Source of the DNA: Methyloceanibacter sp.
GTDB taxonomy: Bacteria; Pseudomonadota; Alphaproteobacteria; Rhizobiales; Methyloligellaceae
Assembly: GCF_050726195.1 (NCBI RefSeq)
Contig: NZ_JBOHJC010000010.1
Span: 100,746 to 124,745, forward strand
DNA: 24,000 nucleotides
Direction: 5' to 3'
A program made the translations under genes and the position numbers. Shown here one piece after another: positions 1 through 17,806 of the stretch; the first letter of the stretch is position 1, and the number at the start of each line of letters is the position of its first letter. The notes beneath the pieces are model-generated. The model did not search any database. It worked only from the letters and a program-made list of their open reading frames with translations, and was not told the DNA's origin.

Positions 1-685
1 GCACGACCCCTTCGGGCGGGCGGCGCTGCTCCCAGCCTGCCCGCTCCAGCGCCGGCGTGTCGTCCTCAGCTTCGGGGTAACCGACGCAGAGATGGCCGAT
101 GAACACCCAGTCCGATGGCACGTCGAGGATTGCCGTCATGCGCGAAGGATCGAGGATCGACACCCAGCCGACCCCAAGCCCTTCCGCCCGCGCGGCGAGC
201 CACAACGTGTGGATGGCGATGGCGACCGAGTAATCCAAGGTCTCCGGCATGGTGCGGCGGCCCAGCCCCGAGCCTTGCGCCGTGGCGCGGTCGGCGAACA
301 CGGAGACTTGCACCGGCGCCTCGTCGAGGCCGGCGAGTTTGAGCCGCGCATAGAGCGCGGCGCGGTCCGGCGCCTGCATCTCAAGCGCATCTTTGTTGCA
401 CGCCTGAAAACAATCGCGGATCGCGGCGCGCCGCATCTCGTCCTCCACCAGCACGAAGCGCCACGGCTCCGAGAGCCCGACCGAGGGCGAGAGGCAGGCA
501 ATCGAGATCAGCCGCTCGATCGCGCCTTCGGGCAAAGCCAATCGCTTGAAGCGGCGCACGTCCCGCCGCCACTTCAGCAGATCAAGAAGCCGCGCGCGAA
601 AGCTCGCGTCGAAGGCGGGCGGCTCGGCCTGTTGCCCCTCGCGCTCCGCGAATCGCTGTTCGAATTGTCGGCTGAAGCTGTCCAT
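1..685 (-). CDS. bluB: 5,6-dimethylbenzimidazole synthase (BluB, nitroreductase fold); C-terminal end runs off the window
   Basis: Absent from the ORF track because its stop lies left of position 1. Hand translation of the reverse strand from ATG (complement of 683-685) gives MDSFSRQFEQRFAEREGQQ...LLKWRRDVRRFK...CLSPSVGLSEPWRFVLVEDE...HTLWLAARAEGLGVGWVSILDP...GHLCVGYPEAEDDTPALERAGWEQRRP. The LWLAARAEG-GVGWVSI block and the ELERAGW tail match rhizobial BluB as I remember it. The listed + ORF 92..703 is its antisense shadow. Confidence 0.8.
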   Translation of the reverse strand, partial: MDSFSRQFEQRFAEREGQQAEPPAFDASFRARLLDLLKWRRDVRRFKRLALPEGAIERLISIACLSPSVGLSEPWRFVLVEDEMRRAAIRDCFQACNKDALEMQAPDRAALYARLKLAGLDEAPVQVSVFADRATAQGSGLGRRTMPETLDYSVAIAIHTLWLAARAEGLGVGWVSILDPSRMTAILDVPSDWVFIGHLCVGYPEAEDDTPALERAGWEQRRPPEGVV

Positions 686-808
686 GGGTCCCCACGACCC
701 TAGCACGGATCGGCGCTGGCGCCCGCCTACCGAGGATGTGGCCACCACTCGCCCCCGGTTCCCCCTCCTGGCCGGCGAATTAGCCAGGAATGTATTCTCA
801 ATTTGAGG

Positions 809-875: not shown

Positions 876-1811
876 GTGCAGAGATCGGCGGCAAGTCGGC
901 AGGCAAGCCTTCGGCTCCACCGCGTGCGCGCGCTCCTTTGGGGCAAGGTCGTCGAGGCCAAGCTCCACGCCCTCGACCGCGCCATCAAGGCGAACTTCGA
1001 CCCCAACCAGCCGCGTGTCCCTGCCGGCAATCCCGACGGCGGTCAATGGACAAGCACTGGCGGCGGAAGCGGCTCTCAGAGCGCAAACGAGCGCCTAGCC
1101 CAAGCGCGCGGCGGTCGCCGCCGCGGCAGCGACGCCGAAGCAACACCGGCGCAACTCGCACGCCGCGACATCGCGGAGGCGCAGGCGCGTGCTGCCATTC
1201 GCCGTGTCAACGACATCGATCCGGCATGGAAGCCCCGCGCGAGTCTGACCAGGCCGAATTCGGTAGAAGGTGAAATCGCTCGGGCTGAAGCTGCGCGCAG
1301 CGAGGCGGAAGTGCGGCTGCGCGAGCTTGCTCAGGAGGAACCTACCAGTCTAATTGATGCTTTTCGGCGTCAGCACGGGCTGGACCTTCTCGGCGATCCC
1401 ATATGGTCGCGCGAACAAAACAGCGTGTCCACATGTCAAGTCGATGGCGTTCCGTATCTTGGAGTCAATTCGCAGGCGATCACGTACACCAATTCAGATA
1501 GGACATCAGCGGAACGAGCACGAAGCGTGCTGATAGAAAAACATCCTGATGTCATCAACACTGATGACATAGGCCAGTTTCCCAACGACGCGCTGTTCCA
1601 TGCCGAAGCAACGTGCCTTCTGAGAGCAGCTCGTGCGAATGGCGGCACGCTTGAGACCCGAGTGATTGAAGTAACTGTCGATCGCGTTATGTGCCCGAGC
1701 TGCAGAACTGTTCTTCCGGTCTTAGGATTGGAACTCGGTAATCCCACGGTAAGATTTATTGACCCCCGCGGGTTCACCCGGACGATGCGCGACGGGCATT
1801 GGATCGAATAG
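876..1811 (+). CDS. Polymorphic-toxin-like protein: Arg/Ala-rich N-terminal module plus a C-terminal cytidine-deaminase-fold (HAE...CPSC) toxin domain
   Basis: ORF track 876..1811 (GTG start; GAGGAG at 861-866). FHAEATCLL (H242-A-E244, nt 1599-1607) is followed by VMCPSCRTVL (C273-P-S-C276, nt 1692-1703), the zinc-binding signature of the deaminase fold. Third-position GC drops from about nt 1250 onward. A small ORF follows 9 nt after the stop. Confidence 0.7.
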   Translation: MQRSAASRQASLRLHRVRALLWGKVVEAKLHALDRAIKANFDPNQPRVPAGNPDGGQWTSTGGGSGSQSANERLAQARGGRRRGSDAEATPAQLARRDIAEAQARAAIRRVNDIDPAWKPRASLTRPNSVEGEIARAEAARSEAEVRLRELAQEEPTSLIDAFRRQHGLDLLGDPIWSREQNSVSTCQVDGVPYLGVNSQAITYTNSDRTSAERARSVLIEKHPDVINTDDIGQFPNDALFHAEATCLLRAARANGGTLETRVIEVTVDRVMCPSCRTVLPVLGLELGNPTVRFIDPRGFTRTMRDGHWIE

Positions 1812-1820
1812 GAAAGGTCC

Positions 1821-2294
1821 ATGAGAAAGAGCGGCTATTTCGATTCTCAAGAAATAAAGGGCTGGCCTGATCCGCTAGAGCTGAGGCCTTACTTCTATGC
1901 TCCTCCAGGTCAGGAATGGTTCCACACCGGAGGCAATGACGGTGCGAGCATCGAGGCAGAAGGAGTCGATGGAAGCGATGCGTTGCCGGTAAACAAAGGC
2001 CGCATCGACATTCGTCTCCTGATGTGGGGCATCCCCAAACTCGGCGTCCTCCTGATCTACACGAAATGGGGTGGCGGCTCCCGAGAGACTTATAGTTCGA
2101 AGGGCGACCTGCGACGACTAAGCGAATGGGTGCATAACCTGCACAACACCCCCCTCCCCGTTGGCCTGTTCATCCCCTTCCCCGACGCCTACGAGGCGGT
2201 GAAGGAATTCATCGAGACAGACGGTCAATTGCCCAAGTGCATTGAGTGGGTTGCAAACAAGAACCTGCCGCCAGGCACCTTCCCCGATCCTTGA
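1821..2294 (+). CDS. Putative cognate immunity protein of the deaminase toxin (possibly Imm1-like; family not confirmed)
   Basis: 157-aa ORF with an AGGAAAGG Shine-Dalgarno 9 nt after the toxin stop. Cytoplasmic, no signal peptide. Paralog of 3190..3666. The C-terminal motif AYEAVKEFIETDGQLPKCIEWV resembles the tail I recall for Imm1-type immunity proteins that pair with deaminase toxins. Confidence 0.6.
   Translation: MRKSGYFDSQEIKGWPDPLELRPYFYAPPGQEWFHTGGNDGASIEAEGVDGSDALPVNKGRIDIRLLMWGIPKLGVLLIYTKWGGGSRETYSSKGDLRRLSEWVHNLHNTPLPVGLFIPFPDAYEAVKEFIETDGQLPKCIEWVANKNLPPGTFPDP
2172..2290. repeat. Copy 1 of a perfect 119-bp direct repeat (3' end of immunity gene 1)
   Basis: atccccttccccgacgcctacgaggcggtgaaggaattcatcgagacagacggtcaattgcccaagtgcattgagtgggttgcaaacaagaacctgccgccaggcaccttccccgatcc is identical base for base to 3544..3662 (offset 1372 nt). 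Confidence 0.95.
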
Positions 2295-2301
2295 GGTAGC
2301 C

Positions 2302-2673
2302 ATGAATCGAGGGAGACTCCAGGATATGACGTTAGATCAGTTGATCGAACGGTTCGTCCAGATCGCCCTGGCGCAGGACGATGCGATACTCGACGACCGA
2401 TACTCCGAGTTCAATCGCCTCTACGACCGAATGCTAGATGTCGATCGGGAACTTCGCGCACGTGGTATAGAGGCGCGGCTAGAGTTGTTGCGGCTCTATG
2501 ACCACCCAAACATTCAAGTAAGGCTCAAGGCAGCAACCTCAACACTCGGCGTGGCGCCAAAGGAGGGACGAAGGCTGCTGGAATCCATTGCGGCTTCGCA
2601 ACACTACCCACAGGCTGCCGACGCTGGCATGTTGGTGGACGGACTAGACGATGGAACCTTTAGGCCCACCTGA
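2302..2673 (+). CDS. DUF2019-like small helical protein (immunity-type gene)
   Basis: ATG at 2302 with GAGG 5 nt upstream, 7 nt after the preceding stop. The sequence ...LDQLIERFVQIALAQDDAIL...FNRLYDRM...LYDHPNIQVRLKAATSTLGVAP...AASQHYPQAADAGMLVDGLDDGTFRP matches the DUF2019 pattern as I recall it (FNRL, HPN-QVRL-AA, P-QA--AGM-L--L--G-F-P). Confidence 0.65.
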   Translation: MNRGRLQDMTLDQLIERFVQIALAQDDAILDDRYSEFNRLYDRMLDVDRELRARGIEARLELLRLYDHPNIQVRLKAATSTLGVAPKEGRRLLESIAASQHYPQAADAGMLVDGLDDGTFRPT

Positions 2674-3054
2674 GTGGCGTCCATGACGGGGCTTAGCCTC
2701 CAAGAACTGACGACCGACCAGCTTGTCGGGCGCTTCGTCGAAAATACGCTTGCTCAGGACGAGGCACTTCTTGAAGGTGAGCGAGCCCAATTCAATCGCC
2801 TGTTCACCGAAATGCGCGCGATACTTGAGGAATTAACGGCTCGCAAAGGCGACCAGAGGCGAACTCTATTTCCCTTATACGATCATCCCAACAGCCAAGT
2901 CCGACTAAAGGCGGCAAAGAACACGTTGGCGCTGGCCCCCGATGAGGCGCGCAACGTTATTCAAGCGATCGCAAGTTCCGGCGAGTATCCGCAGGCTGGC
3001 GAAGCAGGCATGTGCCTCCGCAATCTTGATGCCGGGGTCTTTAAGCCCAGTTGA
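2674..3054 (+). CDS. DUF2019-like small helical protein, tandem paralog
   Basis: GTG at 2674 abuts the previous TGA (an alternative ATG is at 2683). By eye about half the positions are identical to 2302..2673, including FNRL, LYDHPNSQVRLKAAKNTL, YPQAGEAGM and LDAGVFKP. Confidence 0.65.
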   Translation: MASMTGLSLQELTTDQLVGRFVENTLAQDEALLEGERAQFNRLFTEMRAILEELTARKGDQRRTLFPLYDHPNSQVRLKAAKNTLALAPDEARNVIQAIASSGEYPQAGEAGMCLRNLDAGVFKPS

Positions 3055-3186
3055 GCGTTCGCCCCACGTCGCAGGCGATCCGACCATACTTCCTTAGTCG
3101 GATTGGAGCTAGGCAACCCGGAGATCACCATTGTCGACAACACTGGCATCACAATCACGATACGTGATGGCAAACTAGTCAGGTGA
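3055..3186 (+). pseudogene. Orphan remnant of a second deaminase-toxin C-terminus (last ~30 codons only; catalytic motifs absent)
   Basis: The frame open from 3055 to TGA 3184-3186 reads ...TSLVGLELGNPEITIVDNTGITITIRDGKLVR*. This aligns with the last 32 aa of the intact toxin, LPVLGLELGNPTVRFIDPRGFTRTMRDGHWIE*. At nt level GGATTGGAGCTAGGCAACCC (3100-3119) matches GGATTGGAACTCGGTAATCC (1725-1744) with only third-position differences. There is no start codon and no HAE or CxxC. Confidence 0.7.
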
Positions 3187-3189
3187 CCG

Positions 3190-3666
3190 ATGCGAAAGTG
3201 GACTGACTTCGACAAGTACGACCACGAAGGCTGGGCAGACCCGCGCGACCTGATGCCCTATTTTTTTGGACCACCTGGCCAGGAGTGGTTTCACACAGGA
3301 GGAAACGACACTGCTGGCCTTTCGGCGGAAGGTCTTTACGGCACGGAGAACGAGGATCACCTGGCAGGACGCAGGGTAGACCTTCACCTGATGATGTGGG
3401 GCATGCCTGGACTGGGCGTCCTATTGCTTTATCGCAAGTTTGGCGGCAGCTACCAGGAGGCCTTCACTTCAAAAGGCGATATGAGCCGACTGCGCGAGTG
3501 GGTGCGTAGTCTGCACTACGATCCCCTGCCCGTCGGCCTCTTTATCCCCTTCCCCGACGCCTACGAGGCGGTGAAGGAATTCATCGAGACAGACGGTCAA
3601 TTGCCCAAGTGCATTGAGTGGGTTGCAAACAAGAACCTGCCGCCAGGCACCTTCCCCGATCCGTGA
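3190..3666 (+). CDS. Orphan immunity paralog (same family as 1821..2294)
   Basis: 158-aa ORF starting 3 nt after the remnant stop. Collinear with 1821..2294 (MRK...GW-DP--L-PYF--PPGQEWFHTGGND...LLMWG-P-LGVLL-Y-K-GG...SKGD--RL-EWV--LH--PLPVGLFIPFPDAYEAVKEFIETDGQLPKCIEWVANKNLPPGTFPDP). The last 42 aa are identical. Confidence 0.65.
   Translation: MRKWTDFDKYDHEGWADPRDLMPYFFGPPGQEWFHTGGNDTAGLSAEGLYGTENEDHLAGRRVDLHLMMWGMPGLGVLLLYRKFGGSYQEAFTSKGDMSRLREWVRSLHYDPLPVGLFIPFPDAYEAVKEFIETDGQLPKCIEWVANKNLPPGTFPDP
3544..3662. repeat. Copy 2 of the perfect 119-bp direct repeat (3' end of immunity gene 2)
   Basis: Identical to 2172..2290. Identity breaks at 3543 vs 2171 and at 3663 vs 2291. Confidence 0.95.
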
Positions 3667-3678
3667 GACGCGAGCGCC

Positions 3679-4578
3679 CTACCCCGCCGCGGCGACCTTG
3701 GTGCGCGCCGTCTCGTGGTGGGTCAGCGCCGTATAGTCGGCCATCAGCGCGCGGGTGATGTCGCCGACCTTGAATTGATAGTCGCCGATCGAGGCGACCG
3801 GCATGACTTCCGCCGCCGTGCCGGTGATGAAGCACTCGGTAAAGCCGCCGAGCTCCTCCGGCATGATCGTCTTCTCGACCAGCTTGATGCCGCGCTCTTT
3901 GGCGAGGCCGATCACTGTGCGCCGCGTGATGCCGTCGAGGAAGCAATCCGGCGTCGGCGTATAGATCACGCCGTCCTTGACGAAGAAGATGTTGGCGCCG
4001 GTGCATTCGGCGATGCGACCGCGCCAGTCGAGCATCACCGCATCGGCAAAGCCCGCCCGCTCGGCGCGGTGCTTCTCGATGGTGCAGATCATATAGAGCC
4101 CGGCCGCCTTGCTGTGGACCGGCGCCGTGGCGGGGTCTGGCCGGCGATATTTGCCGAAGGTGAGCTTGAGCCCGGTCTCGCGCGCGGCCGGGTCGAAATA
4201 GGCGCCCCAATCCCACGCGGCGATGGCGACGTTGATCTTGGTCTTTTGCGCCGAGACGCCCATCTGCTCGCTGCCGCGCCAGGCGATGGGGCGGACATAG
4301 GCGTCGGTGAGCTTGTTGGCGCGGAGCACGTCGCGCGCGGCCTTGTCCAGCTCGGCGACGGAATAGGGAATCGCGAAGTCGAGGATCTCGGCCGATTTGT
4401 GCAGGCGCTGATTGTGCTCGGTCAGCTTGAAGATCTCGCCGTTATAGGCGCGCATGCCTTCGAACACGGCGCTGCCGTAATGCAATGCATGGGTGAGGAG
4501 ATGCACGCGCGCATCCGACCACGGGATCAGCTCGCCGTTGAACCAGATATAGCCGTCGCGCTGATCGTAGGTCGCCAT
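3679..4578 (-). CDS. ilvE: Branched-chain amino acid aminotransferase
   Basis: ORF track 3679..4638(-). I prefer the internal ATG at 4578 (MATYDQRDGYIWFNGELIPW...), which is preceded by GGAGGAG. Class IV aminotransferase hallmarks are present (HYGSAVFEGMRAY, ECTGANIFFV, ITGTAAEV). Confidence 0.9.
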   Translation of the reverse strand: MATYDQRDGYIWFNGELIPWSDARVHLLTHALHYGSAVFEGMRAYNGEIFKLTEHNQRLHKSAEILDFAIPYSVAELDKAARDVLRANKLTDAYVRPIAWRGSEQMGVSAQKTKINVAIAAWDWGAYFDPAARETGLKLTFGKYRRPDPATAPVHSKAAGLYMICTIEKHRAERAGFADAVMLDWRGRIAECTGANIFFVKDGVIYTPTPDCFLDGITRRTVIGLAKERGIKLVEKTIMPEELGGFTECFITGTAAEVMPVASIGDYQFKVGDITRALMADYTALTHHETARTKVAAAG

Positions 4579-4718
4579 GAGCTCTCCTCCGCGAGCAGGA
4601 CCGGCCGTTCTTCGCCGCGGGCCTCGTCCTCGAAACACCAGAAGCGCCCCTCATACCACCTCTCGACGGCGATTGCGCGCGTTGGCGGCGAGGCGTATCA
4701 AGGGTCAATTAAGTCAAC

Positions 4719-5342
4719 ATGGCTGACATAAACCAGCCCGAGAAATATGTCAACATGACTGACCTAAATCCGCCACTCGCTCGCGGCGCCAAGACCGCCG
4801 AGGCCAAGCGCGGCAATGGCCGCCCCGGCGATAAGGGCGCCCCCCTGCCCGAAGCCAAGCTGCACGAATTCGCCGAACTGCTGTTCTTCGCCTATCGCGA
4901 CTTCACCAAGGACCCCGACGCGATCCTTGCCAATTTCGGCTTCGGCAGGGCGCATCACCGGGTGCTGCATTTTGTCAACCGCCACTCGGGCTTGCGCGTC
5001 GCCGACCTGCTGGAGATCCTCACTATCACCAAGCAGAGCCTCTCGCGCGTGCTCAAGCAATTGATCGACCAGGGATATATCGTGCAGCAGGCGGGCTCGT
5101 CGGACCGCAGACAGCGGCTCCTGTTCCCCACTCCGCGCGGCCGCGCCCTGGCCGAGCGCTTGGCGGCCCCCCAGCTCGTCCGCCTCACCAACGCCCTTCA
5201 GGCCGCCGGGCCCGGGGCCGAGGCCACCCTCCGCCGCTTTCTCGAGGCCATGATCAATGCCGAAGATCGGCCAAAAGTCTCCTCGATAATGTCTGCGTCG
5301 CCGGTAGAGCCAAGCGACGGCGGCAAGGGGGGAGGGTCTTGA
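4719..5342 (+). CDS. MarR-family transcriptional regulator (PetP-like position upstream of an OmpR-family response regulator)
   Basis: Winged-helix region HHRVLHFVNRHSGLRVADLLEILTITKQSLSRVLKQLIDQGYIVQQAGSSDRRQRLLFPTPRG. The start is uncertain (ATG at 4719 or 4755). Confidence 0.8.
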   Translation: MADINQPEKYVNMTDLNPPLARGAKTAEAKRGNGRPGDKGAPLPEAKLHEFAELLFFAYRDFTKDPDAILANFGFGRAHHRVLHFVNRHSGLRVADLLEILTITKQSLSRVLKQLIDQGYIVQQAGSSDRRQRLLFPTPRGRALAERLAAPQLVRLTNALQAAGPGAEATLRRFLEAMINAEDRPKVSSIMSASPVEPSDGGKGGGS

Positions 5343-5344
5343 CC

Positions 5345-6058
5345 ATGCCGACGGCGATCAAAGCGCACCGCGCCAGCGGCCCGGACGACAACGCGCCGCA
5401 TATCCTCGTCGTCGACGACGACAGCCGCATCCGCGATCTGCTCGCCCGCTATCTTTACGACCACGGCTTCCGCGTCACCACCGCGGTCGACGCCGCCTCG
5501 GCGCGCGCCACCATGCGCAGCCTCTCCTTCGATCTGCTCATTCTCGATGTGATGATGCCGAAGGAGTCCGGCATCGAGTTCGCCCGTACGCTGCGCGCCG
5601 AAAGCCGCGTGCCGATCCTCATGCTGACTGCCCGCGCCGAACCGGAGCAGCGCATCGAAGGTCTGGAGACCGGCGTCGATGACTATCTCGCCAAGCCGTT
5701 CGATCCGCGCGAGCTGCTGCTAAGGGTCGGCAACGTTCTCCGCCGCGGCGCCGCGGCGCAAGGCTCCAGCGAGGTCCGCATGGGCGAGTTCATCTTCCAT
5801 GTCTCGCGCGGCGAGTTGAAGCGCGACGGCGAGACGGTTCGCCTCACTGAGCGGGAGCGCGAGCTGTTGCGTTACTTCGCCCAGCGTCCCGGCACACCGG
5901 TGTCGCGCCACGAGCTTGCCAAGGGCGCCGATAGCGGCGCCGAGCGCGCCGTCGACGTGCAGATCAACCGGCTTCGGCGCAAGATCGAGCATGATCCTGC
6001 CAACCCGGTCTATCTCCAGACCGTGCGCGGCAAAGGCTATATCCTCTACTCCGAATGA
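5345..6058 (+). CDS. OmpR-family response regulator (PetR/CenR-like)
   Basis: Receiver domain (ILVVDDD...LLILDVMMP...AKPF) plus a winged-helix output domain (LTERERELLRYF...VDVQINRLRRKIE...YLQTVRGKGY). The ORF track begins at TTG 5339; ATG 5345 is more likely. Confidence 0.9.
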   Translation: MPTAIKAHRASGPDDNAPHILVVDDDSRIRDLLARYLYDHGFRVTTAVDAASARATMRSLSFDLLILDVMMPKESGIEFARTLRAESRVPILMLTARAEPEQRIEGLETGVDDYLAKPFDPRELLLRVGNVLRRGAAAQGSSEVRMGEFIFHVSRGELKRDGETVRLTERERELLRYFAQRPGTPVSRHELAKGADSGAERAVDVQINRLRRKIEHDPANPVYLQTVRGKGYILYSE

Positions 6059-7440
6059 CGATGGACGCGCTCACCCACACCGCCCCGCTTCCCACCGAAC
6101 GCCGCCGGCCCTTGCGGCGGCTCCTTTCGGCAATCGGCGATGCGATGCCGAAAGGCCTCTATGCGCGCGCCCTCATCATCATCATTGCGCCGATGGTGCT
6201 GCTCCAATCGGTGGTGACGTTCGTGTTCCTGGAACGGCATTGGCAAACGGTGACGCACCGGCTGTCGACCGTCACGGTGCAGAACATCGCCATGTTGATC
6301 GACATGTATCAGGCGTTTCCCCAAGGGCAGAATGGCGAAACCCTGACCGCGCTCGCCGAGAAGAATCTGAACCTGCGGGTGCGCTTCGCCAAGGGCGAGG
6401 AGCTGCCGGAAGTCCGCTCGAAGCCGTTCTTCGGCCTCCTCGATGACGCGCTCTCCGACGAGTTGACGACGCGCATCGGGCGTCCGTTCTGGATCGATAC
6501 GGTCGGCCGCTCCGACTTCGTCGACATCCGCATCAAGCTCGACGATGCGGTGATGCACGTCCTCGCCAAACGCAGCCAAACCTATGCCTCCAACTCGCAC
6601 ATTTTCCTGGTGTGGATGCTCGGCACTTCGCTCGTGCTGCTCACCGTGGCGATCCTGTTCCTGCGCAACCAGATCAAGCCTATCCTGCGACTCGCGCACG
6701 CGGCCGAGAGCTTCGGCAAGGGGCGGCCGCCGCCGCCCGACTTCCGCCCGCGCGGCGCGCGCGAAGTGCGCCAGGCGGCCCATGCCTTCATCGAGATGCG
6801 CGACCGCATCGAGCGTCACGTGGAGCAGCGCACCGTCATGCTCGCCGGCGTCAGCCACGATCTGAGAACCGTCCTGACCCGCTTCAAGCTGCAACTCGCC
6901 CTGTTCGAGGAGACGCCGGAGATCGACGCCATGCGTGCCGACGTCGATGAGATGCAGGCCATGCTCGAGGACTACATGGCGTTCGCCAAGGGCGATTCCG
7001 GCGAGGAGATCGTACGCACCGACATCGGCGAAATTCTCGGCGAAGTGAAGAGCCAGGCGCATGCCGCCAAGAACATCGAGATCGAAGTCGAGGGCGAGCC
7101 TCTGGTGGTGCCGGTGCGCCGCCACGCGTTCAAGCGCGCCGTCGCCAACCTGGTCAACAACGCCGCCCGGTTCGCCGACCACGTGAACGTCAGCGCCGCC
7201 AAGCACAATGGCTCGCTCACCGTCCAGGTGGAAGATGACGGCCCCGGCATTCCGGAAGACGAGCGCGAGCATGTGTTTCGGCCGTTCTACCGCGTCGATG
7301 ATGCGCGCAACCAGGACGCCGGCTCGACCGGGCTCGGGCTCGCCATCGCCCGCGACATCGCCCGGATCCACGGCGGCGACATCGCGCTGGGTGAATCCCG
7401 CCTCGGCGGTTTGAAAGCCGTGCTAAGAGTTCCCGTCTGA
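6055..7440 (+). CDS. EnvZ-like sensor histidine kinase (two TM segments, HAMP, HisKA, HATPase_c)
   Basis: ATGA overlap with the response regulator stop. TM segments LIIIIAPMVLLQSVVTFVFL and IFLVWMLGTSLVLLTVAILFL. H-box GVSHDLRT, N-box NLVNNAARFA, G-boxes DDGPGIP and GSTGLGLAIARDI. Confidence 0.9.
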   Translation: MTMDALTHTAPLPTERRRPLRRLLSAIGDAMPKGLYARALIIIIAPMVLLQSVVTFVFLERHWQTVTHRLSTVTVQNIAMLIDMYQAFPQGQNGETLTALAEKNLNLRVRFAKGEELPEVRSKPFFGLLDDALSDELTTRIGRPFWIDTVGRSDFVDIRIKLDDAVMHVLAKRSQTYASNSHIFLVWMLGTSLVLLTVAILFLRNQIKPILRLAHAAESFGKGRPPPPDFRPRGAREVRQAAHAFIEMRDRIERHVEQRTVMLAGVSHDLRTVLTRFKLQLALFEETPEIDAMRADVDEMQAMLEDYMAFAKGDSGEEIVRTDIGEILGEVKSQAHAAKNIEIEVEGEPLVVPVRRHAFKRAVANLVNNAARFADHVNVSAAKHNGSLTVQVEDDGPGIPEDEREHVFRPFYRVDDARNQDAGSTGLGLAIARDIARIHGGDIALGESRLGGLKAVLRVPV

Positions 7441-7457
7441 TTCTGGAGGAGATGCTT

Positions 7458-7778
7458 ATGCGCAGGATGGCTGTCGGACTGGCAGCGTTATTGGCGGTCG
7501 CGTTCTGCGGAGCGGCCTCGGGCGAATCCGTCCAAGACGAGATTCAAGACGCCGAGCAGCCGGGCTCCGAGATCGAGATCGATCTCGGCGGCGGCAAGCC
7601 GCAAATTCACCGCGAGGGCGGCGGGCCGATCTTCGGCGAGGGTGAAGCCGAGGTGCCCTTGGAGCCTCTCGACGACCCCGACAATCCCATCGACCCGGAC
7701 CCCATCGACGAGGAATTGCCTGGCGAAGGGCCCGAGGACCTTTCGGGCCCGTTCGACGAGGATCCTCTGCCGGAATAG
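7458..7778 (+). CDS. Small secreted acidic Pro/Asp/Glu-rich protein (hypothetical)
   Basis: GGAGGAG at 7445-7451 favours ATG 7458 (MRRMAVGLAALLAVAFCGAASG-ESV...), a signal-peptide-like N-terminus. The mature part is highly acidic (PLDDPDNPIDPDPIDEELPGEGPEDLSGPFDEDPLPE). Third-position GC is high, consistent with host coding sequence. Confidence 0.5.
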   Translation: MRRMAVGLAALLAVAFCGAASGESVQDEIQDAEQPGSEIEIDLGGGKPQIHREGGGPIFGEGEAEVPLEPLDDPDNPIDPDPIDEELPGEGPEDLSGPFDEDPLPE

Positions 7779-7796
7779 CCGCGTCGCGGTGAGCGA

Positions 7797-8477
7797 CTAC
7801 ATGGCCGGCGCCGGGCCCGCCTCCGGCGCTCGCGGCGGTGGCGTTGTTTCCGCACCGTCCTTCCGCTTCCAGCCGCGCGGCATCAGCCCGCACACGAAAC
7901 GGCAGGCATCTTCCATCCTGGTCAGCATCTGCTCGCCGCGGCTCAAGCGGCGGTCGAGCGCCGCCATGGTGCGATCGAGCGACGGCGACGGGTCGTCGAG
8001 CCAGACCTGAAACACCTTGCCGTAGATCGATGCGAGACCGGCGACGCGCACCGCGGCGCCAGGCCCTTCGAGCTTGGCGCCGGACGCGGCAAGCATCCAG
8101 TATTGCGACGCGAGCGTTGAGCAGGCGATGAGCGACGCCTCGCCCGGACGGCAGCGCAGGTAACATGCGATGCGCTTCAGCGCGGGCTTGTACGGCCCCA
8201 GCACCTCGAACCGCGTCATGACAATGTCGAACAGCCGGTCGCGTGGGCTCTGGTCGGGCCCGGCCGGTTTCGCCTTGGCCAGCACCTCGGCGTCGACCTC
8301 GGCCTGGAAGGCGCGGATGATATCGCTCTTGCAGGAGAACTCGCGCCTGAGGTCGGCAAGGTCGAGGCCTGCCTGCTTGGCGATGTCGGCGAGGGTGATG
8401 TCGCCCCAGTCGCGCTGTTGCGCCAGCTCGAGCGCGGCCCGCACGGCTTTGCTTCGCTTGGAGAATTCGTCGAACAT
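7797..8477 (-). CDS. TetR-family transcriptional regulator
   Basis: N-terminal HTH AALELAQQRDWGDITLADIAKQAGLDLADLRREF, with a helical C-terminal ligand domain. Confidence 0.8.
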   Translation of the reverse strand: MFDEFSKRSKAVRAALELAQQRDWGDITLADIAKQAGLDLADLRREFSCKSDIIRAFQAEVDAEVLAKAKPAGPDQSPRDRLFDIVMTRFEVLGPYKPALKRIACYLRCRPGEASLIACSTLASQYWMLAASGAKLEGPGAAVRVAGLASIYGKVFQVWLDDPSPSLDRTMAALDRRLSRGEQMLTRMEDACRFVCGLMPRGWKRKDGAETTPPPRAPEAGPAPAM

Positions 8478-8499
8478 GGGCGTACTCCTTTGCCCTAGA

Positions 8500-8524
8500 A
8501 GATAGGCCTTTTTGGTGGCTATCT
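8500..8524. promoter_or_regulatory. Imperfect inverted repeat upstream of the TetR gene (candidate operator)
   Basis: AGATAG (8500-8505) ... CTATCT (8519-8524) flank a T-rich centre, 23 nt upstream of the TetR start at 8477. Confidence 0.25.
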
Positions 8525-8551
8525 AAAGACGCCGAAGTCGCCCCATTCAGC

Positions 8552-9373
8552 TTACGACGATAGCTCGCGGGAGCGTTTGGCGGCGGCCTCCACGGCGCGG
8601 AGGAACAGCTCCTGCATGCCGTGCTTGCCCATCAGCACGTCGAGCGCCGCCGCGGTCGTGCCCTTTGGCGACGTGACATTCTTGCGGAGTTCGGCCGGTT
8701 CCAGCTCGGAACGGCGCAACAACTCGCCGGCGCCCGCGACGGTGGCACGCGCCAGCCGCTTGGCGAGATCATGCGGAAGCCCTGCCGCCACGCCCGCCTC
8801 TTCCAGGCATTCCGCGAGCAGGAACACGTAAGCCGGCCCGCTACCGGACACGGCGGTCACAGGATCGAGCAGCGTTTCGTCCGCGAGCCAGATCACCTCG
8901 CCCACCCCAGACAGCAACGCATCACACTCCCGCCTCTGCTCCGCCGTGACGTTGGCATTGGCGACCGCGACGGTCATCCCCTGCCCGACCGACACAGGCG
9001 TGTTCGGCATCGCGCGCACGATCGCCGCCGTCTCCGGCAGATACCGCGACAGGCTCGCCAGCGTCCTCCCAGCGGCAATGGACAGAACCACAGTCCTCTC
9101 GCCGATCATCGGCTCGATCTCCGGCAACAGTCTGTCGGTGACGTCGGGCTTCACCGCAATGAGAATGACGGCGGGCGGCGCCGGCAGCTCAGGCGCGTCG
9201 TTCGCGGCGATGCCGTGACGCGCGGCAAGCGCGCGCATCGCTTCCGACAGCGCGGGATCCTGGATGAAGACCGTGGCCGGGTCGAGGCCCTGCTTGAGCC
9301 ATCCCTCGAGCAGCGCCCCGCCCATCTTGCCCGCGCCCACGAGGAGCAACGGGCCGGCGAGGCGGAGTGTCAT
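8552..9373 (-). CDS. proC: Pyrroline-5-carboxylate reductase
   Basis: MTLRLAGPLLLVGAGKMGGALLEGW... (Rossmann GxGxxG), AMPNTP, SGSGPAY and SPKGTTAAAL motifs. The ATG at 9373 makes a 4-nt overlap with the upstream ybjN-like gene. Confidence 0.9.
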   Translation of the reverse strand: MTLRLAGPLLLVGAGKMGGALLEGWLKQGLDPATVFIQDPALSEAMRALAARHGIAANDAPELPAPPAVILIAVKPDVTDRLLPEIEPMIGERTVVLSIAAGRTLASLSRYLPETAAIVRAMPNTPVSVGQGMTVAVANANVTAEQRRECDALLSGVGEVIWLADETLLDPVTAVSGSGPAYVFLLAECLEEAGVAAGLPHDLAKRLARATVAGAGELLRRSELEPAELRKNVTSPKGTTAAALDVLMGKHGMQELFLRAVEAAAKRSRELSS

Positions 9374-9867
9374 GCGCTTCCTTGCGTCTCGAGCATGGTG
9401 GCGGCAAGGGCGTCTTCGGCCGACTTGCCCGCCCACAACACGAACTGGAACGACTGATAATAGCGCTCACAGGCTTCGAGCGCCGCCTTTAACAGCGCTT
9501 CGCATTGGCCGGCATGGGTGGTGGCGCCGGCAAGCAGCAGCCCGTGGCGGTAGAGCAGCATGCCGTCCTCGCGCCACAAGTCGAAATGGCCGAGCCACAT
9601 CTGCTCGTTGATCAGCGCCATCAGCCGGTAGATCTCCGGCAGCCTGGGCGAGGTCGCCCGGAAATCGAAGGCGCAAGCGAGATGCAGCGCCTCTAGGTCC
9701 TCCCGCCAGGTGAGCGAGATGTGGTAGTCGCACCACGCGCCGGCCACCGACAGGGTGAGCTCGTCAGGGGTGCTGCGCTCGAACGCCCAGTCGTGGATGG
9801 TCGCAATCTGCTCGACGATGTCGACCGGGTTGGTGAAGTGGTCGTAGATAGCTTGTATCGTAGCCAT
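9370..9867 (-). CDS. YbjN-domain protein (putative sensory transduction regulator / chaperone-like)
   Basis: 165-aa acidic protein directly upstream of proC, a pairing I recall as conserved in alphaproteobacteria. The family call is by eye only. Confidence 0.55.
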   Translation of the reverse strand: MATIQAIYDHFTNPVDIVEQIATIHDWAFERSTPDELTLSVAGAWCDYHISLTWREDLEALHLACAFDFRATSPRLPEIYRLMALINEQMWLGHFDLWREDGMLLYRHGLLLAGATTHAGQCEALLKAALEACERYYQSFQFVLWAGKSAEDALAATMLETQGSA

Positions 9868-10023
9868 GCGTGTCCTCTGAGGGCCTCAGCAGAGTTCCGC
9901 GCACGCAACACGCCTGCCGCGAATCAGTAGATGAATCAGTTATATATCGAGGAGTCTGCGAGCACCAAGGCGGCCGGAGTCGCCCGCAGCGAATAGCTGT
10001 GGAAGGCTTCAAAAAGCTGTGGA

Positions 10024-11331
10024 TTACTTTGCGCGCGGACTCGACTCGCGTTTCGGCGGTAGCGCCGGAGTCTCATCCCCGCAGGCGGCGGCGCGGTCGA
10101 GCAGCAATTTGCGCTCGCGTTCATTCTGAGTCAGCGCCGCGGCGCGCGCGAACTCCGCCCGCGCCTCGTCGAACCGGCCGAGCTTCTCGAGGAGGTCGCC
10201 GCGGACGCTCGGCAGAAGATGATACGCCCTGAGCGTCGGCTCCGATTTCAAGGCATCGACGACCGCAAGCCCCGCCTCGGGGCCGAACAACATGGCAAGC
10301 GCCACCGCGCGATTGAGCTCCACGATGGGTGACGGCGCAATGTCGCCGAGCTTGCCGTAAAGTCCGACGATCTGCGCCCAATCCGTCTCCGCGGCCGTGC
10401 GCGCCCGCGCGTGACACGCGGCGATCGCCGCCTGCAATGCGTAGGGACCCGGGACCTGCGTCAACCTCTCAGCACGTTCGAGCGCCGCGAGACCGCGGCG
10501 AATGAGGAGCTGATCCCACCGCGCGCGATTCTGATCGAGCAGAAGCACCGGCTCGCCCGAGGGCTCGGTGCGCGCGCCGAAACGCGACGCCTGAATCTCC
10601 ATCAGCGCGATGAGGCCGTGCACTTCCGCCTCGTCGCGCGCCAGCTCGGCAAGGATGCGGCCCAGACGCAGCGCCTCCTGGCAGAGCTGCGGCCGCATCC
10701 AGTCGTCGCCCGCGGTTGCCGAATAGCCCTCGTTGAAGATCAGGTAGATGACCGCGAGCACGGAAGCGAGGCGCGAGGCGCGTTCCTCCCCGCGCGGCAC
10801 CTCGAACGGCACGCGCTTCTCGGCGAGCATCCGCTTGGCGCGGACAATGCGCTGCGCCACCGTCGGCTCGGGTACAAGGAACGCACGCGCGATCTCCTCG
10901 GTGGTCAAGCCGCCAAGCAGGCGCAAGGTGAGCGCCGCCTGCGCATCGGGTGCAAGGACCGGGTGGCAGGAAATGAACATCAAACGCAAGAGATCGTCGC
11001 CAATGTCGTCGTCGAGCGCGGCGTCGAGATCGGGCTGCGTCTCCTGCTCGATCACGAGTTCGTAGCCGAGCTGTTCGTGCTTGCGCTCGGCGAGCTTGTT
11101 GCGGCGAAAGCGGTCGATCGCGCGATTCTTCGCCGAGGCCATGAGCCAGGCGGCGGGCTTGTCGGGAATGCCCAATCTAGGCCACTGCTCGAGCGCCGCG
11201 ACCAGCGCGTCTTGCGCCAATTCCTCGGCGACGCCCACGTCGCGCACCATGCGCGTGAGGCCGGCGATCAGCTTGGCCTGCTCGATGCGGAACACCGCCT
11301 CTATGGCGCCTGTGATGTCGGTCGCCGTCAT
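10024..11331 (-). CDS. ECF sigma factor with a long C-terminal TPR-like extension (ECF42-type)
   Basis: Sigma2 (ELAQDALVAALEQWP...AWLMASAKNRAIDRFRR) and sigma4 (LTTEEIARAFLVPEPTVAQRIVRAKRML) regions, followed by a helical extension of about 230 aa. Two DGPF-motif genes lie immediately upstream, the genomic context described for ECF42. Confidence 0.8.
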   Translation of the reverse strand: MTATDITGAIEAVFRIEQAKLIAGLTRMVRDVGVAEELAQDALVAALEQWPRLGIPDKPAAWLMASAKNRAIDRFRRNKLAERKHEQLGYELVIEQETQPDLDAALDDDIGDDLLRLMFISCHPVLAPDAQAALTLRLLGGLTTEEIARAFLVPEPTVAQRIVRAKRMLAEKRVPFEVPRGEERASRLASVLAVIYLIFNEGYSATAGDDWMRPQLCQEALRLGRILAELARDEAEVHGLIALMEIQASRFGARTEPSGEPVLLLDQNRARWDQLLIRRGLAALERAERLTQVPGPYALQAAIAACHARARTAAETDWAQIVGLYGKLGDIAPSPIVELNRAVALAMLFGPEAGLAVVDALKSEPTLRAYHLLPSVRGDLLEKLGRFDEARAEFARAAALTQNERERKLLLDRAAACGDETPALPPKRESSPRAK

Positions 11332-11373
11332 GGCGACCGACTATGGCCACTTCCTTCGCGTCTGCAAGCGGCG

Positions 11374-11781
11374 CTAGACCGCGGTCGCCTGCTCCTCCGC
11401 GACTTGGTCGCACAGCTTCTCGCCCGGGCCCCCGATCTGGCGGATTTCGCATTCCCCTTGCCAGCCTGGGAGGTACGCCTTGTGTAGGTCCATCATGCGG
11501 CGCGCCCATTTGACCATCTCGTCCATCGACTGCGCCTCGAAGATCGCGAAACCGCCGATGACTTCCTTGGCCTCGGTAAACGGGCCGTCCATGATGCTGA
11601 CCTTGCCGCCGTCGAGGCGCACACGCGCGGCCTTGGCGGTCGGCAACAAGCCTTCGCCCGCGGTCATCACGCAACCAGCCTCGGCAGCTTCCCGCGTCAG
11701 CGCGCCCATCGCCTCGAGGAACTCCTTCGGCGGCGGGGCCGCGTTGGTTTCCCGAAATTTCACCATCGATATGAATCGCAT
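11374..11781 (-). CDS. YciI-like / DGPF-domain protein
   Basis: MRFISMVKF...MDGPFTEAKEVIGGFAIFEA. The DGPF motif and size are typical. Confidence 0.8.
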   Translation of the reverse strand: MRFISMVKFRETNAAPPPKEFLEAMGALTREAAEAGCVMTAGEGLLPTAKAARVRLDGGKVSIMDGPFTEAKEVIGGFAIFEAQSMDEMVKWARRMMDLHKAYLPGWQGECEIRQIGGPGEKLCDQVAEEQATAV

Positions 11782-11842
11782 CTCACGTCTCCTTCGTGTT
11801 GACTATCTATCGGTCTTGAGCGGGCGTCTGCCAGGTTCAGGA

Positions 11843-12256
11843 TCATGACTTCGCAATTTGCTCGCTCAGCCGGCGATGGTGCTCGACCGCATCGCTTTCG
11901 CCGAAATCCTCGAGCTCGAACATCTGGCGGATTTCGATCTCGCTGTCCTCGTTATGGGGATTGGGGCAGCGCTTGATCCAGGCGACCGCCTCCTCCAGCG
12001 ACTTGCATTGCAGGACCCAGTAGCCGGCCACCAGCTCCTTGGTCTCGGCGAAGGGGCCGTCGACGACTGTGCGCTTGTCGCCGGAAAACCGGACGCGAGC
12101 GCCCTTCGAGCTCGGCTGGAGCCCGTTGCCGTCGAGCATCACGCCGGCCTTCACCAGCTCCTCGTTGAACTTCGCCATGGCGGCGAGCAGTTCTTCGGAG
12201 GGCATCGCGCCGGCCTCCGAATCCTTCGTGGCTTTGACGAACGCTACGAATCGCAT
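11843..12256 (-). CDS. YciI-like / DGPF-domain protein
   Basis: Start moved to ATG 12256 (MRFVAFVKAT...), preceded by GAGAGGAGAA. Contains VDGPFAETKELVAGYWVLQC. Confidence 0.8.
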   Translation of the reverse strand: MRFVAFVKATKDSEAGAMPSEELLAAMAKFNEELVKAGVMLDGNGLQPSSKGARVRFSGDKRTVVDGPFAETKELVAGYWVLQCKSLEEAVAWIKRCPNPHNEDSEIEIRQMFELEDFGESDAVEHHRRLSEQIAKS

Positions 12257-12307
12257 GTGTTTTCTCCTCTCTTTCCGTGGAAGCCGGTTGCCTGGCTCTA
12301 TCCCCAC

Positions 12308-12334
12308 GACGAACGGGGCGCAGCGGAATCGACA
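12308..12334 (-). promoter_or_regulatory. Candidate ECF42-type autoregulated promoter (TGTCGA-N17-CGTC)
   Basis: On the minus strand: TGTCGA (complement of 12329-12334), a 17-nt spacer, CGTC (complement of 12308-12311). It lies about 50 nt upstream of the first DGPF gene start. This matches the ECF41/42-type -35 TGTC.. / -10 CGTC pattern as I recall it. Confidence 0.4.
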
Positions 12335-12395
12335 GGCGCACGAATTATTTTGAGGGAATTTTTTCGCGGAAAGACGGCAGCCTGTGGACCGAAGC

Positions 12396-12668
12396 CTAGG
12401 CGCCCTTCTTGGACTTGCCCTTGGCGAGCGCGGCCTCCAGCGCGGCGATGCGCTCTTTAAGGCTCTCGTTCTCCTCCCGCGCCTTCTGCGCCATGGCCTT
12501 GACCGCCTCGAACTCCTCGCGCTGCACCACGTCGAGGTCGCGCAACACGCGCTCGGCCTGGGCGCGGACGACGCTCTCGACCTCCTTGCGCACGCCGTCG
12601 GCGGCGCCGGCCGCGTCGGTCAGGAGCTTGCCGAGCTCGTCGAAGAATCGTCCGGTAGTCTGCGTCAT
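12396..12668 (-). CDS. ubiK: UbiK/YqiC (BMFP) family coiled-coil accessory factor
   Basis: MTQTTGRFFDELGKLLTDAAGAA...VVQREEFEAVKAMAQKAREENESLKERIAALEAAL. Start moved to ATG 12668. Confidence 0.7.
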   Translation of the reverse strand: MTQTTGRFFDELGKLLTDAAGAADGVRKEVESVVRAQAERVLRDLDVVQREEFEAVKAMAQKAREENESLKERIAALEAALAKGKSKKGA

Positions 12669-12828
12669 GGCGAAAATCCCTGGAATGGGGCGAAACTGAA
12701 CTGTCATCTGCGGCGACTATGGGACGCCATCATAACCGAGGCAAGCCGCGGGACGGCGCGGCCTTGAGCGCCTTGACAGTCGATATCCAGCGGTGAAGGG
12801 TCGGCCCGTCGCTCCGACCCCAGGACCC

Positions 12829-14780: not shown

Positions 14781-14799
14781 CCAAGCCAAACCGCCCGCC

Positions 14800-15585: not shown

Positions 15586-15740
15586 GTTAGGTTCACCATA
15601 AGCGGCGTTGGCCCCATCCGGGGGTATCGCTTAAACTGGACGCAAGCCTGCCGGGGCAGGTAAGCTATTTGGGTTGAGGGTTGGGAGTCCCGTCGCGAGA
15701 TTTTCGCGAGCGGTGCTGTGCGGCCAACAGAGGGAGTATT

Positions 15741-16718: not shown

Positions 16719-16840
16719 CCTCGTCCACAAGGCGCAGCTGGCGAGTTTACAGGTGTGCCAAGCCCTTGTTAAAAGCGCGGCGTGGCGCAGGCGGCCGAGC
16801 GGTCCGCCTCGCGTGGACGACCTGCTCGGGGAGAGGCCGC

Positions 16841-17773: not shown

Positions 17774-17806
17774 ACGCGAGAGCCGAGGGTGACCGGTTCT
17801 TTTGAG

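Follow-up and report, generated by a model that had tools for sequence, protein, structure and literature searches.

The question raised by this locus is what kind of protein is encoded by the open reading frame (ORF) at 876..1811 of a 24,000-nucleotide stretch of Methyloceanibacter DNA (the whole stretch is called the window below), and how such a protein could reach a target. The host is a metagenome-assembled genome (MAG) of Methyloceanibacter. The ORF lies on the forward strand, starts with GTG, is preceded by GAGGAG about 10 nucleotides (nt) 5' of its start and encodes 311 amino acids (aa); the product is identical to the hypothetical protein P0001 of an NCBI Methyloceanibacter sp. MAG. 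A preliminary description, made from the sequence alone, had proposed a small toxin with a C-terminal nucleic-acid deaminase domain. The explanation that we favour as a whole is a deaminase toxin-immunity system with a front end linked to the heads of gene transfer agents (GTAs), in which the toxin would travel as particle cargo (probability roughly 0.7). The deaminase toxin-immunity part of this explanation is highly probable, and the particle-cargo part is tentative, at rather less than an even chance. The parts of the toxin gene and its immunity gene, all on the + strand, are the following:

876..1811, +, toxin gene (ORF): N-terminal trafficking-type module, linker, helical middle domain and C-terminal deaminase
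888..989, +, N-terminal long helix, aa 5-38 (AlphaFold2 (AF2) model, predicted local distance difference test (pLDDT) about 90; aligns family-wide, sequence variable)
996..1052, +, near-invariant linear motif F41-DPNQPRVPAGNPDGGQW-T59, signature of a polymorphic toxin family (alignment)
1053..1142, +, disordered Gly/Ser/Arg-rich linker, aa 60-89 (pLDDT <50 over aa 55-85; length variable in the alignment)
1143..1373, +, helical middle ('pre-toxin') domain, aa 90-166 (AF2 helices 91-114, 130-152 and 156-166)
1377..1808, +, zinc-dependent deaminase domain of the C-terminal-hairpin type, aa 168-311 (AF2 and Foldseek)
1599..1607, +, H242-A-E244, predicted zinc ligand and catalytic glutamate, where helix 2 begins (alignment; model helix 243-254)
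1692..1703, +, C273-P-S-C276, two predicted zinc-ligand cysteines at the start of helix 3, with R270 before them ('+xxCxxC'; alignment; model helix 274-286)
1821..2294, +, cognate immunity gene, Imm1, 157 aa (PF14430, E=1.1e-7, 33.1 bits vs the 22.4 cut-off)

A deaminase domain and its immunity partner

The C-terminal domain has a deaminase fold with intact catalytic residues. Residue frequencies in this work are taken from an alignment of 51 full-length homologues (42-78% identity), in which H242, E244, C273 and C276 are invariant (51/51 each), and A243 (50/51), S275 (46/51) and R270 (45/51) are nearly so. Since the four key residues never vary, the motif cannot be regarded as a chance arrangement. 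The preliminary description had located the zinc-ligand signature exactly (nt 1599-1607 and 1692-1703, the latter after the strand VIEVTVDRVM). Its CPSC form has to be amended: both cysteines are indeed invariant, but the proline is variable and the conserved form is R-x-x-C-x-S-C. Among 227 family proteins with a recognisable signature, 222 carry HAE. More than 743 homologues of the toxin were found, with conservation spanning the full length, and an exhaustive HMMER search for the domain returned 398 cluster representatives at 50% identity; the best 150 of these are all at most 457 aa long, and the domain is C-terminal in the full-length ones.

The full-length AF2 model has a mean pLDDT of 84 and the model of the deaminase domain alone reaches 92.9. 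The structure prediction and Foldseek search suggested in the preliminary description gave the sheet and helix core of a deaminase, in the order b1-b2 (strands 184-189 and 192-197), insert helix 206-222 with a loop, helix 2 with HAE (243-254), b3 (263-268), helix 3 with CxSC (274-286) and a b4-b5 hairpin (strands 291-295 and 301-305 with a turn of 5 residues between them) and, last, one short strand. The model has three layers with strands ordered as in cytidine deaminase, and no helix 4 lies between strands 4 and 5, which places the domain in the C-terminal hairpin division. A Foldseek search of the domain against the PDB retrieved mostly deaminases; the listed matches with a probability of at least 0.6 are all deaminases, nearly all of them of the hairpin type. 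The best is a synthetic PPR-DYW protein (9kfx_A, E=4.6e-5, probability 1.0, template modelling (TM) score 0.61), followed by the DYW domain of OTP86 (7o4e/7o4f), DddB (BadTF3, 9k3e), cytidine deaminases (CDA) and blasticidin-S deaminase (BSD), while the DddA structures 6u08 and 8e5d superpose with TM 0.45-0.49. The full-length model gave weak matches only (E 0.016-1), its score being diluted by the helical N-terminal half, and clear matches appeared when the domain was cut out; against the viral structures of BFVD the full-length model retrieved nothing significant.

The small ORF that had been noticed behind the toxin gene is the Imm1 gene, which begins 9 nt past the toxin stop codon and scores above the Pfam threshold. 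Together with the structural matches to deaminases, this bears out the earlier proposal of a C-terminal deaminase toxin with an immunity gene. Imm1 lies directly downstream of 21/21 deaminase-type family genes in the fetched loci, and also in L001-L006. Deaminase toxins are the partners for which Imm1 was originally defined as an immunity family (PMC3239186). The low-GC patch was confirmed as well: GC amounts to 0.66-0.72 between nt 850 and 1300, a stretch that takes in the 5' third of the toxin gene, falls to 0.49-0.59 from about nt 1375 to about nt 3600, and returns to 0.66-0.69. The drop at about nt 1375 coincides with the start of the deaminase domain, therefore the composition breaks inside the toxin gene; low GC then persists through the genes for immunity that follow. 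Imm1 had no match among PDB sequences, and neither the toxin nor Imm1 nor DUF2019 (see below) was matched in NCBIfam, PHROGs or PADLOC. No secretion-system gene was found near the toxin locus and inspection of the N-terminus revealed no hydrophobic signal sequence; a promoter and terminator scan of the island gave nothing above chance. One family member of 416 aa (P0228) carries the deaminase domain and then an Imm1-like sequence in a single gene call; behind this stands either a merge caused by a frameshift or by gene calling, or a toxin naturally fused to its immunity protein.

Relation to known deaminase clades

The preliminary description had left the clade unassigned, and this proved to be fair. 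The Pfam clan search that it suggested gave, for the window protein, sub-threshold matches only (MafB19-deam, PF14437, E=0.047; dCMP_cyt_deam_1, E=0.14). Across the 51 family members MafB19-deam is found in 27 (counted at E<=0.01, best 1.6e-6), Deam_C in 15 and dCMP_cyt_deam_1 in 14, and PF14428 matches neither the window protein nor any of the 51. We compared the clade synapomorphies in Table 1 of PMC3239186 with the residue frequencies of the homologues.

By sequence the nearest clade is MafB19 (Iyer, Zhang, Rogozin & Aravind 2011; PF14437), a polymorphic-toxin domain from the C-terminal-hairpin division with HxE rather than CxE and the best Pfam family for the homologues. All its residue signatures are kept: N198 at the end of strand 2 (46/51), HxE, V268 at the end of strand 3 (40/51), R270, and G288 (50/51), which stands three residues before the modelled strand 291-295. 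However, the window protein scores 14 bits against the PF14437 gathering threshold of 27, with an alignment that covers helix 2 to helix 3 only, and ten further members are all below 27 bits. The gene context differs too, as the partner is Imm1 and not SUKH or SUFU, and no MafB_N, RHS or hemagglutinin N-terminal domain is present. Additionally, the Pfam profile has been reported not to coincide with the 'MafB19' profile of Iyer (bioRxiv 10.1101/2023.06.29.547047). Because of this profile difference, the bit score, the insert of about 40 residues and the Imm1 partner, we do not simply file the domain under MafB19.

By structure the closest relatives are DYW/SsdA-like enzymes, which provide the best superpositions (9kfx_A and 7o4e, TM 0.61). 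A basic residue in the insert (R216, 40/51) and D296 after strand 4 (31/51) also agree with DYW. In contrast, HxEK is absent (position 245 is A, S or T), aa 167-183 contain no conserved K, and there is no second metal site and no DYW tail; identity over the superpositions is 12-15%, and the immunity protein is Imm1, not Imm5.

DddA and the SCP1.201 clade share several general traits with the window toxin, namely a small toxin domain at the C-terminus that belongs to the hairpin division, an insert ahead of helix 2 (here aa 199-236, with helix 206-222) and a downstream Imm1, which was first described for SCP1.201 toxins; insert and Imm1 are not clade-specific. The clade signatures are absent. 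Instead of [HD]xEx[KQ] the window protein has H-A-E-A-T, position 246 being T in 38/51 and N in 11/51 homologues and never K or Q, and the N expected at the end of strand 3 is replaced by V268 followed by D269 (46/51). DddA ranks under DYW, DddB, CDA and BSD in Foldseek. It is delivered by the type VI secretion system on a large PAAR/RHS-type protein, unlike the window toxin with its 311 aa and other front end. Membership in DddA/SCP1.201, to which the preliminary description had alluded, is therefore not supported: the window encodes a divergent hairpin-type deaminase toxin which is not a DddA relative.

The homologue P0043 is named 'YwqJ-like deaminase' in UniRef and carries a precomputed PF14437 assignment, so that the family is already partly labelled by automatic annotation. 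The YwqJ name is doubtful because all three signatures of that clade fail: position 240 of the Gx[CH]xE pattern is L or V and never G, aa 199-236 hold no conserved His, and strand 3 is separated from C273 by only 4 residues. The CDA-type signatures (C[H]AE, PCxxCR) are absent as well. In our reading the domain represents a distinct compact subfamily of the hairpin division, nearest MafB19-like enzymes by sequence and DYW/SsdA-like enzymes by structure. It lies outside all curated thresholds, in keeping with the divergent family that had been suspected.

The substrate cannot be read from the sequence, as had been stated before. MafB19-family and bacterial DYW-like (SsdA-like) enzymes deaminate DNA cytosine; these nearest characterised families act on single-stranded and/or double-stranded DNA, and some on RNA too (bioRxiv 10.1101/2023.06.29.547047, 10.1101/2023.05.21.541555). 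By analogy with them, cytosine in DNA is the most likely substrate. The domain is compact (about 145 residues) and distant from solved structures, and its relatives include DNA cytosine deaminases with uses in base editing and methylation sequencing. A small enzyme of the hairpin type with Imm1 as a ready-made inhibitor would be a practical candidate for base-editing screens.

An N-terminal motif heads a polymorphic toxin family

No other part of the protein proved as conserved or as informative as the N-terminus, which had been called unrelated. Residues 41-59, FDPNQPRVPAGNPDGGQWT, form its most conserved stretch: R47, G51, G56 and W58 are invariant, and P43, Q45, P46, P49, G55 and T59 are conserved in at least 90% of the homologues. 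The same segment is disordered in the AF2 model (pLDDT 37-50). Being conserved yet disordered, it therefore behaves as a short linear motif, which may bind a partner or be cleaved. A motif scan of one genome per GTDB species gave 304 confirmed stretches, from which 79 loci were kept, and IMG/VR added 166 more. The 79 loci come nearly all from Alphaproteobacteria, mostly Hyphomicrobiales, with Methyloceanibacter, Hyphomicrobiaceae, Xanthobacteraceae, Rhodoplanes, Pseudorhodoplanes, Phyllobacterium, Aurantimonas, Devosia and others among the hosts; the distribution in the fetched loci is patchy and multi-copy.

The C-termini of 97 motif-bearing ORFs fall into at least 30 unrelated blastp clusters. 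They include the deaminase (always with Imm1), a CdiA-CT RNase A (PF18431, E=5e-13), a phage lysozyme (PF00959, E=4e-38), a weak SLT-type match and a domain with an HH motif, which is followed directly by a DUF2019 gene in 15/16 members of its cluster. The middle domain of the window protein, in which P116, W118, P120 and G132 are conserved, also occurs in some members with a non-deaminase C-terminus, since blastp cluster 0 joins both. Because one motif heads many unrelated C-termini, this is a genuine polymorphic toxin family. Of the traits listed for such families (Zhang et al. 2012), a conserved N-terminal part with varied C-termini, a co-varying downstream immunity gene and orphan cassettes are all present. 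As regards export, no classical secretion domain is found; what the family shows, outside the window locus, is association with RcGTA-like head genes and fusion to portal proteins, which suggests a possible capsid route.

These results bear on whether the window protein could be a housekeeping deaminase for nucleotide salvage, tRNA editing or antibiotic modification that has acquired an odd N-terminus. Such a role would agree with the structural matches to CDA and BSD and with the weak dCMP_cyt_deam_1 hit. It does not account for the strict pairing with Imm1, the low-GC cassette and the missing CDA-type signatures, nor for a front end that RNase, lysozyme and HH-motif variants have in common and that is scattered in a patchy, multi-copy manner, and we consider it very improbable.

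Some further observations concern the family itself. The HH-motif type has a C-terminal domain of about 90 aa with the pattern GYD-x-HHIVEQ...NLVRIP..KH..I..WY (L011 9965-10696; L005 3582-4517; L006 4751-5683; and relatives). It has no match in Pfam, PHROGs or PADLOC, and we take its pattern to resemble HNH/EndoVII-type nucleases; if the type is a nuclease, DUF2019 would gain a role as an immunity protein. Members embedded in structural gene clusters (L005 from 8001, L006 from 1059 and from 4751, L060 from 9605, P0139, P0141) carry an extra N-terminal segment of repeated (R/K)xDAxRF(I/L/M)RPD-like units, for example MRPDAARFMRPDAQRYIRPDVARFLRPG, which the window protein lacks. A profile search with the 51-aa N-terminal module in a set of 5.8 billion proteins found hundreds of proteins of 38-104 aa that consist of helix and motif only (P0261-P0380). 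This search was apparently limited to short hits (at most 104 aa), and the C-terminal diversity is accordingly taken from the genome and viral contig scans; some of the short proteins will be contig-end or frameshift fragments.

Association with gene transfer agent head genes

Two distant homologues were located inside phage-like structural clusters, which prompted local tblastn searches with head and tail probes. Within the 79 genome loci, 40 of the 111 motif occurrences lie in RcGTA-like head-tail clusters and none of the 40 was found on the opposite strand. Twelve stand between the S78 prohead protease and major capsid genes, 7 between portal and protease and 4 between terminase and portal, and the rest elsewhere in the cluster. 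Chance would account for about 1% by a rough estimate, not a computed one, for a cluster of about 15 kb lying within 10 kb of a random gene in a genome of 3-5 Mb. The L011 cluster contains an HK97-type portal and capsid, a distal tail protein of the Rcc01695 family (TIGR02217), a GTA baseplate hub (TIGR02218) and a short tape measure that matches RcGTA_tape (NF058675, 8e-44) with a score below the strict cut-off of that model. L058 has a toxin gene placed after a g15-like gene whose domains include GTA_TIM, Phage-tail_3 and Rcc01698_C. IMG/VR contigs repeat the layout, and two Methyloceanibacter genomes (L017, L075) have a cluster with a motif gene between protease and capsid. In L053, from Rhodoplanes azumiensis KCTC 15603, the motif stands immediately behind the major tail gene of a cluster.

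Some members are fused in frame to an HK97-type portal protein. In L079 (8792-10567) a Phage_portal domain (aa 62-388, E=1.9e-91) is followed by the motif at aa 409 and an RNase A toxin at aa 466-590, and a displaced 3' fragment of the portal gene lies after the toxin at about 10713. L064 (773-2575) has the portal and then the motif in frame, P0118 and P0206 join the C-terminal end of the portal to the motif and the window-type deaminase, and P0174 joins it to a variant motif and this deaminase. We accepted these five as fusions, with the portal end only in the truncated gene calls. L051, L074, L084 and the 1660-aa ORF of L058 were rejected, as here the gene upstream is merely read through out of frame without meeting a stop. 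In the established architecture of portals the C-terminus points to the inside of the capsid. Duplicated 3' ends of the S78 protease or portal gene flank the cassettes in L011 (9437/9622/11491/11779), L056 (2345/4440), L079, L084 (7097/9675), L096 and L147, and therefore cassettes appear to be exchanged by homologous recombination inside the clusters.

The closest precedent for particle cargo, by analogy, is the MuF family of temperate phages, polymorphic toxins of the phage head for which capsid packaging has been proposed (PMC3482391, PMC5576092). As in the present family, a conserved head-associated N-terminal part carries variable toxin C-termini, an immunity gene follows, and the genes stand near portal, terminase and capsid genes. 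The MuF (SPP1 gp7 / Phage_Mu_F) domain itself was not matched by Pfam in the window protein, the 51 homologues or 9 other family variants. Unlike MuF, the conserved part here has only about 60 residues with a disordered motif, the setting is RcGTA-like clusters and typically the protease/capsid position, portal fusions occur, and many copies are dispersed over chromosomes.

Several points weigh against the favoured explanation. On the side of the enzyme, the window protein lies below every curated deaminase threshold and sequence profiles detect no solved deaminase: searches of solved structures with the full protein and with full-length and domain profiles returned nothing significant, the best being the CDA of B. 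subtilis at E=0.73. That H242, C273 and C276 meet at a single site is inferred only from the positions of secondary structure in the model and the Foldseek superpositions on DYW and CDA. On the side of the particle, a search of 50,697 cultured phage genomes did not find the motif, and PHROGs gave no match either. The window locus itself lies outside a GTA cluster, at a site that is syntenic in other Methyloceanibacter genomes, and 71/111 motif occurrences have no head gene in the fetched locus, which extends at most about 10 kb to each side. The idea that the N-terminus of the toxin mimics the delta (scaffold) domain of the capsid was rejected at the level of sequence, as no blastp match to any of 36 capsid N-termini had an E-value under 0.09. 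Finally, phage and GTA structural genes are hot spots for selfish 'moron' insertions, so that co-location alone is no proof of packaging.

Further observations were made in and around the clusters. The motif was not seen at the C-termini of S78 proteases or unfused portals that were inspected, and a place for it at the own C-termini of these proteins was rejected. The deaminase family member P0146 has a variant motif, NPYHDELGRFT (aa about 120-150), after a protease-like C-terminal segment; in cultured phages this variant gave two non-significant hits (E=0.04 and 2; MW202897.1 and FR725450.1), both inside annotated portal genes, which is a lead only. In many RcGTA-like clusters (L005 12748-14390, -; L006, L025, L047, L051, L053, L067, L079, L084, L146) one or two genes for trypsin-like serine peptidases (PF00089/PF13365) stand between the genes for capsid and head-tail connectors, on the opposite strand, and form a second recurrent insertion. 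L058 (MAG MFD09212.bin.1.19, 2791-17800) holds at least 4 motif genes within 15 kb around the g15-like GTA gene. Multi-copy motif arrays are also found in the IMG/VR contigs L139, L142, L144 and L145, often beside a terminase-like gene and without matches to other probes, and these may represent a second type of host element.

A possible mode of delivery

In the mechanism that we propose, H242, C273 and C276 would bind zinc and E244 would act as the proton shuttle. The deaminase would poison cells that lack Imm1; in the producer, Imm1 is predicted to bind the toxin and so to block it. The N-terminal module would recruit the toxin into the head of a GTA or defective phage, non-covalently when the toxin is free-standing and covalently in the portal fusions; recruitment is proposed because much of the family sits inside RcGTA-like clusters or is fused to the portal C-terminus. 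The motif may serve as a docking site or as a release site for the prohead protease. The toxin would then enter a recipient along with the DNA and deaminate nucleic acid wherever Imm1 is absent, and kin with the matching immunity gene would survive.

A wider proposal, which we put forward as possible though doubtful, is that polymorphic toxins travel as protein cargo in the RcGTA-like GTAs of Hyphomicrobiales and of related Alphaproteobacteria, with the motif of about 20 residues, QPRVPAGNPDGGQW, acting as a signal for incorporation into the head or release from it, free-standing or fused to the portal. If this is true, particles would inject a deaminase, RNase, nuclease or lysozyme together with DNA, gene transfer would profit only immune kin, and GTAs would be kin-discriminating weapons as well as vehicles for gene delivery. 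Dispersed islands such as that in the window would be explained as stockpiles of trans-acting cargo and immunity. The maintenance of GTAs is a long-standing puzzle, since producers lyse and others benefit. A toxin cargo with kin-restricted immunity would give a directly testable mechanism of kin discrimination, and this would be weightier than the deaminase itself. Cultured carriers of the motif or the cassette are available: Methyloceanibacter superfactus, Rhodoplanes azumiensis, Phyllobacterium endophyticum, Xanthobacter sp. VNH20, Methyloligella solikamskensis and Aurantimonas marianensis.

One might argue that the toxin leaves the cell outside particles, by lysis of the GTA producers or another secretion route, and acts as a bacteriocin with the motif as a signal for receptor binding or translocation. 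Small bacteriocin-like toxins with an immunity gene are common, and co-orientation with the GTA structural genes would tie expression to the lysing subpopulation. However, a helix and a disordered motif within 60 residues are small for both receptor binding and translocation, a fusion to the portal C-terminus, on the interior side of the capsid, fits a free bacteriocin poorly, and the loci outside GTA clusters have no conserved adjacent gene for lysis or export. Thus we regard a free bacteriocin as improbable and prefer cargo of the particle.

Deaminase toxins with Imm1 and capsid-linked polymorphic toxins are known kinds of systems. Compared with curated libraries and the open literature, the deaminase subfamily, the motif module of about 20 residues and the systematic placement in, or fusion to, RcGTA-like head machinery appear to be new; neither toxin-immunity cassettes in GTA clusters nor the motif were described in the open-access literature that was searched, which is not proof of absence. 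The GTA-head-linked N-terminal module, the partial automatic labelling of the family and the array of immunity genes with a toxin relic, to which we turn below, had been missed by the preliminary description.

The immunity array and its island

Behind the toxin and Imm1 genes the window contains the following features:

2299..2673, +, orphan immunity gene, DUF2019 copy 1 (PF09450, E=6e-29)
2674..3054, +, orphan immunity gene, DUF2019 copy 2 (PF09450, E=1e-38; 48% identity with copy 1)
3094..3186, +, relic 3' end of a displaced deaminase toxin, 31 codons, LVGLELGNPEITIVDNTGITITIRDGKLVR*, no upstream part (tblastn)
3190..3666, +, second Imm1 gene, 158 aa, paired with the relic toxin end (PF14430, E=4.2e-6, 28 bits vs 22.4)
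2007..2295 and 3379-3667, +, direct repeat, 3' parts of both Imm1 genes (289 nt, 82% identity, spacing 1372)

The DUF2019 pair is considered orphan immunity because DUF2019 partners the HH-motif toxin type, which is absent from the locus. The relic was recognised when the toxin served as tblastn query on the window, where its aa 282-310 align with nt 3094-3180 at 48% identity (E=3e-5). It covers the C-terminal hairpin of a second deaminase toxin and stands directly 5' of the second Imm1 gene; the same unit of relic and Imm1 exists in L003 (relic 11581-11724, Imm1 at 11732). The two Imm1 proteins of the window are 68% identical, with identical C-terminal 47 aa, and this identity of the last 47 codon products suggests recent gene conversion. 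The direct repeat is a ready substrate for recombination in the array, which could delete the DUF2019 pair. The approximately 1.8 kb after the toxin gene is, in our terms, a poly-immunity array with a relic toxin end, a classic polymorphic toxin locus with orphan modules.

Similar arrays are found in contact-dependent inhibition (CDI; CdiA-CT/CdiI) and Rhs systems, where a full pair is followed by displaced 3' fragments of toxins with their immunity genes and by extra orphans. The composition break at the junction of the variable domain is another shared feature, and the CdiA-CT RNase A occurs among the C-termini of our family. The present system differs in that a body of the CdiA, FHA or Rhs kind is missing, as are the demarcation motifs VENN and PxxxxDPxGL, and its conserved part is tiny and linked to the phage head.

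The array also helps to judge a further explanation, in which the pair is never exported and works as an addiction or 'moron' module that stabilises its carrier DNA (a GTA cluster or an island) or as an abortive infection system, with the motif used for regulation or recombination. The tight coupling of the two genes, with a 9-nt gap as in type II toxin-antitoxin systems, would suit such a module, and so would the lack of a signal peptide and of nearby secretion-system genes, the two thirds of family genes that lie outside GTA clusters, and the duplicated protease and portal 3' ends, which show that cassettes move by recombination. Contrastingly, orphan immunity against a toxin type that is absent, together with a relic toxin end whose immunity gene is kept, are hallmarks of intercellular conflict. 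The lysozyme and the weak SLT-type C-termini of the family act on peptidoglycan from outside the cytoplasm, the in-frame portal fusions put toxin domains into a virion protein, and the PADLOC defence models gave no match. This explanation is unlikely, and a toxin-immunity system directed at other cells remains our preferred reading.

The island is flanked by a gene for a nitroreductase (-, 2-685) and a gene for a class IV aminotransferase (3679-4638), and an island with a different number of immunity genes occupies the equivalent position in M. caenitepidi and in another Methyloceanibacter genome. The ORF at 92-703 (+), which would encode an Arg-rich protein of 203 aa, is an artefact opposite the minus-strand nitroreductase gene. 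The nitroreductase gene runs off the left end of the window and is 76% identical to the neighbour of the island in L003.

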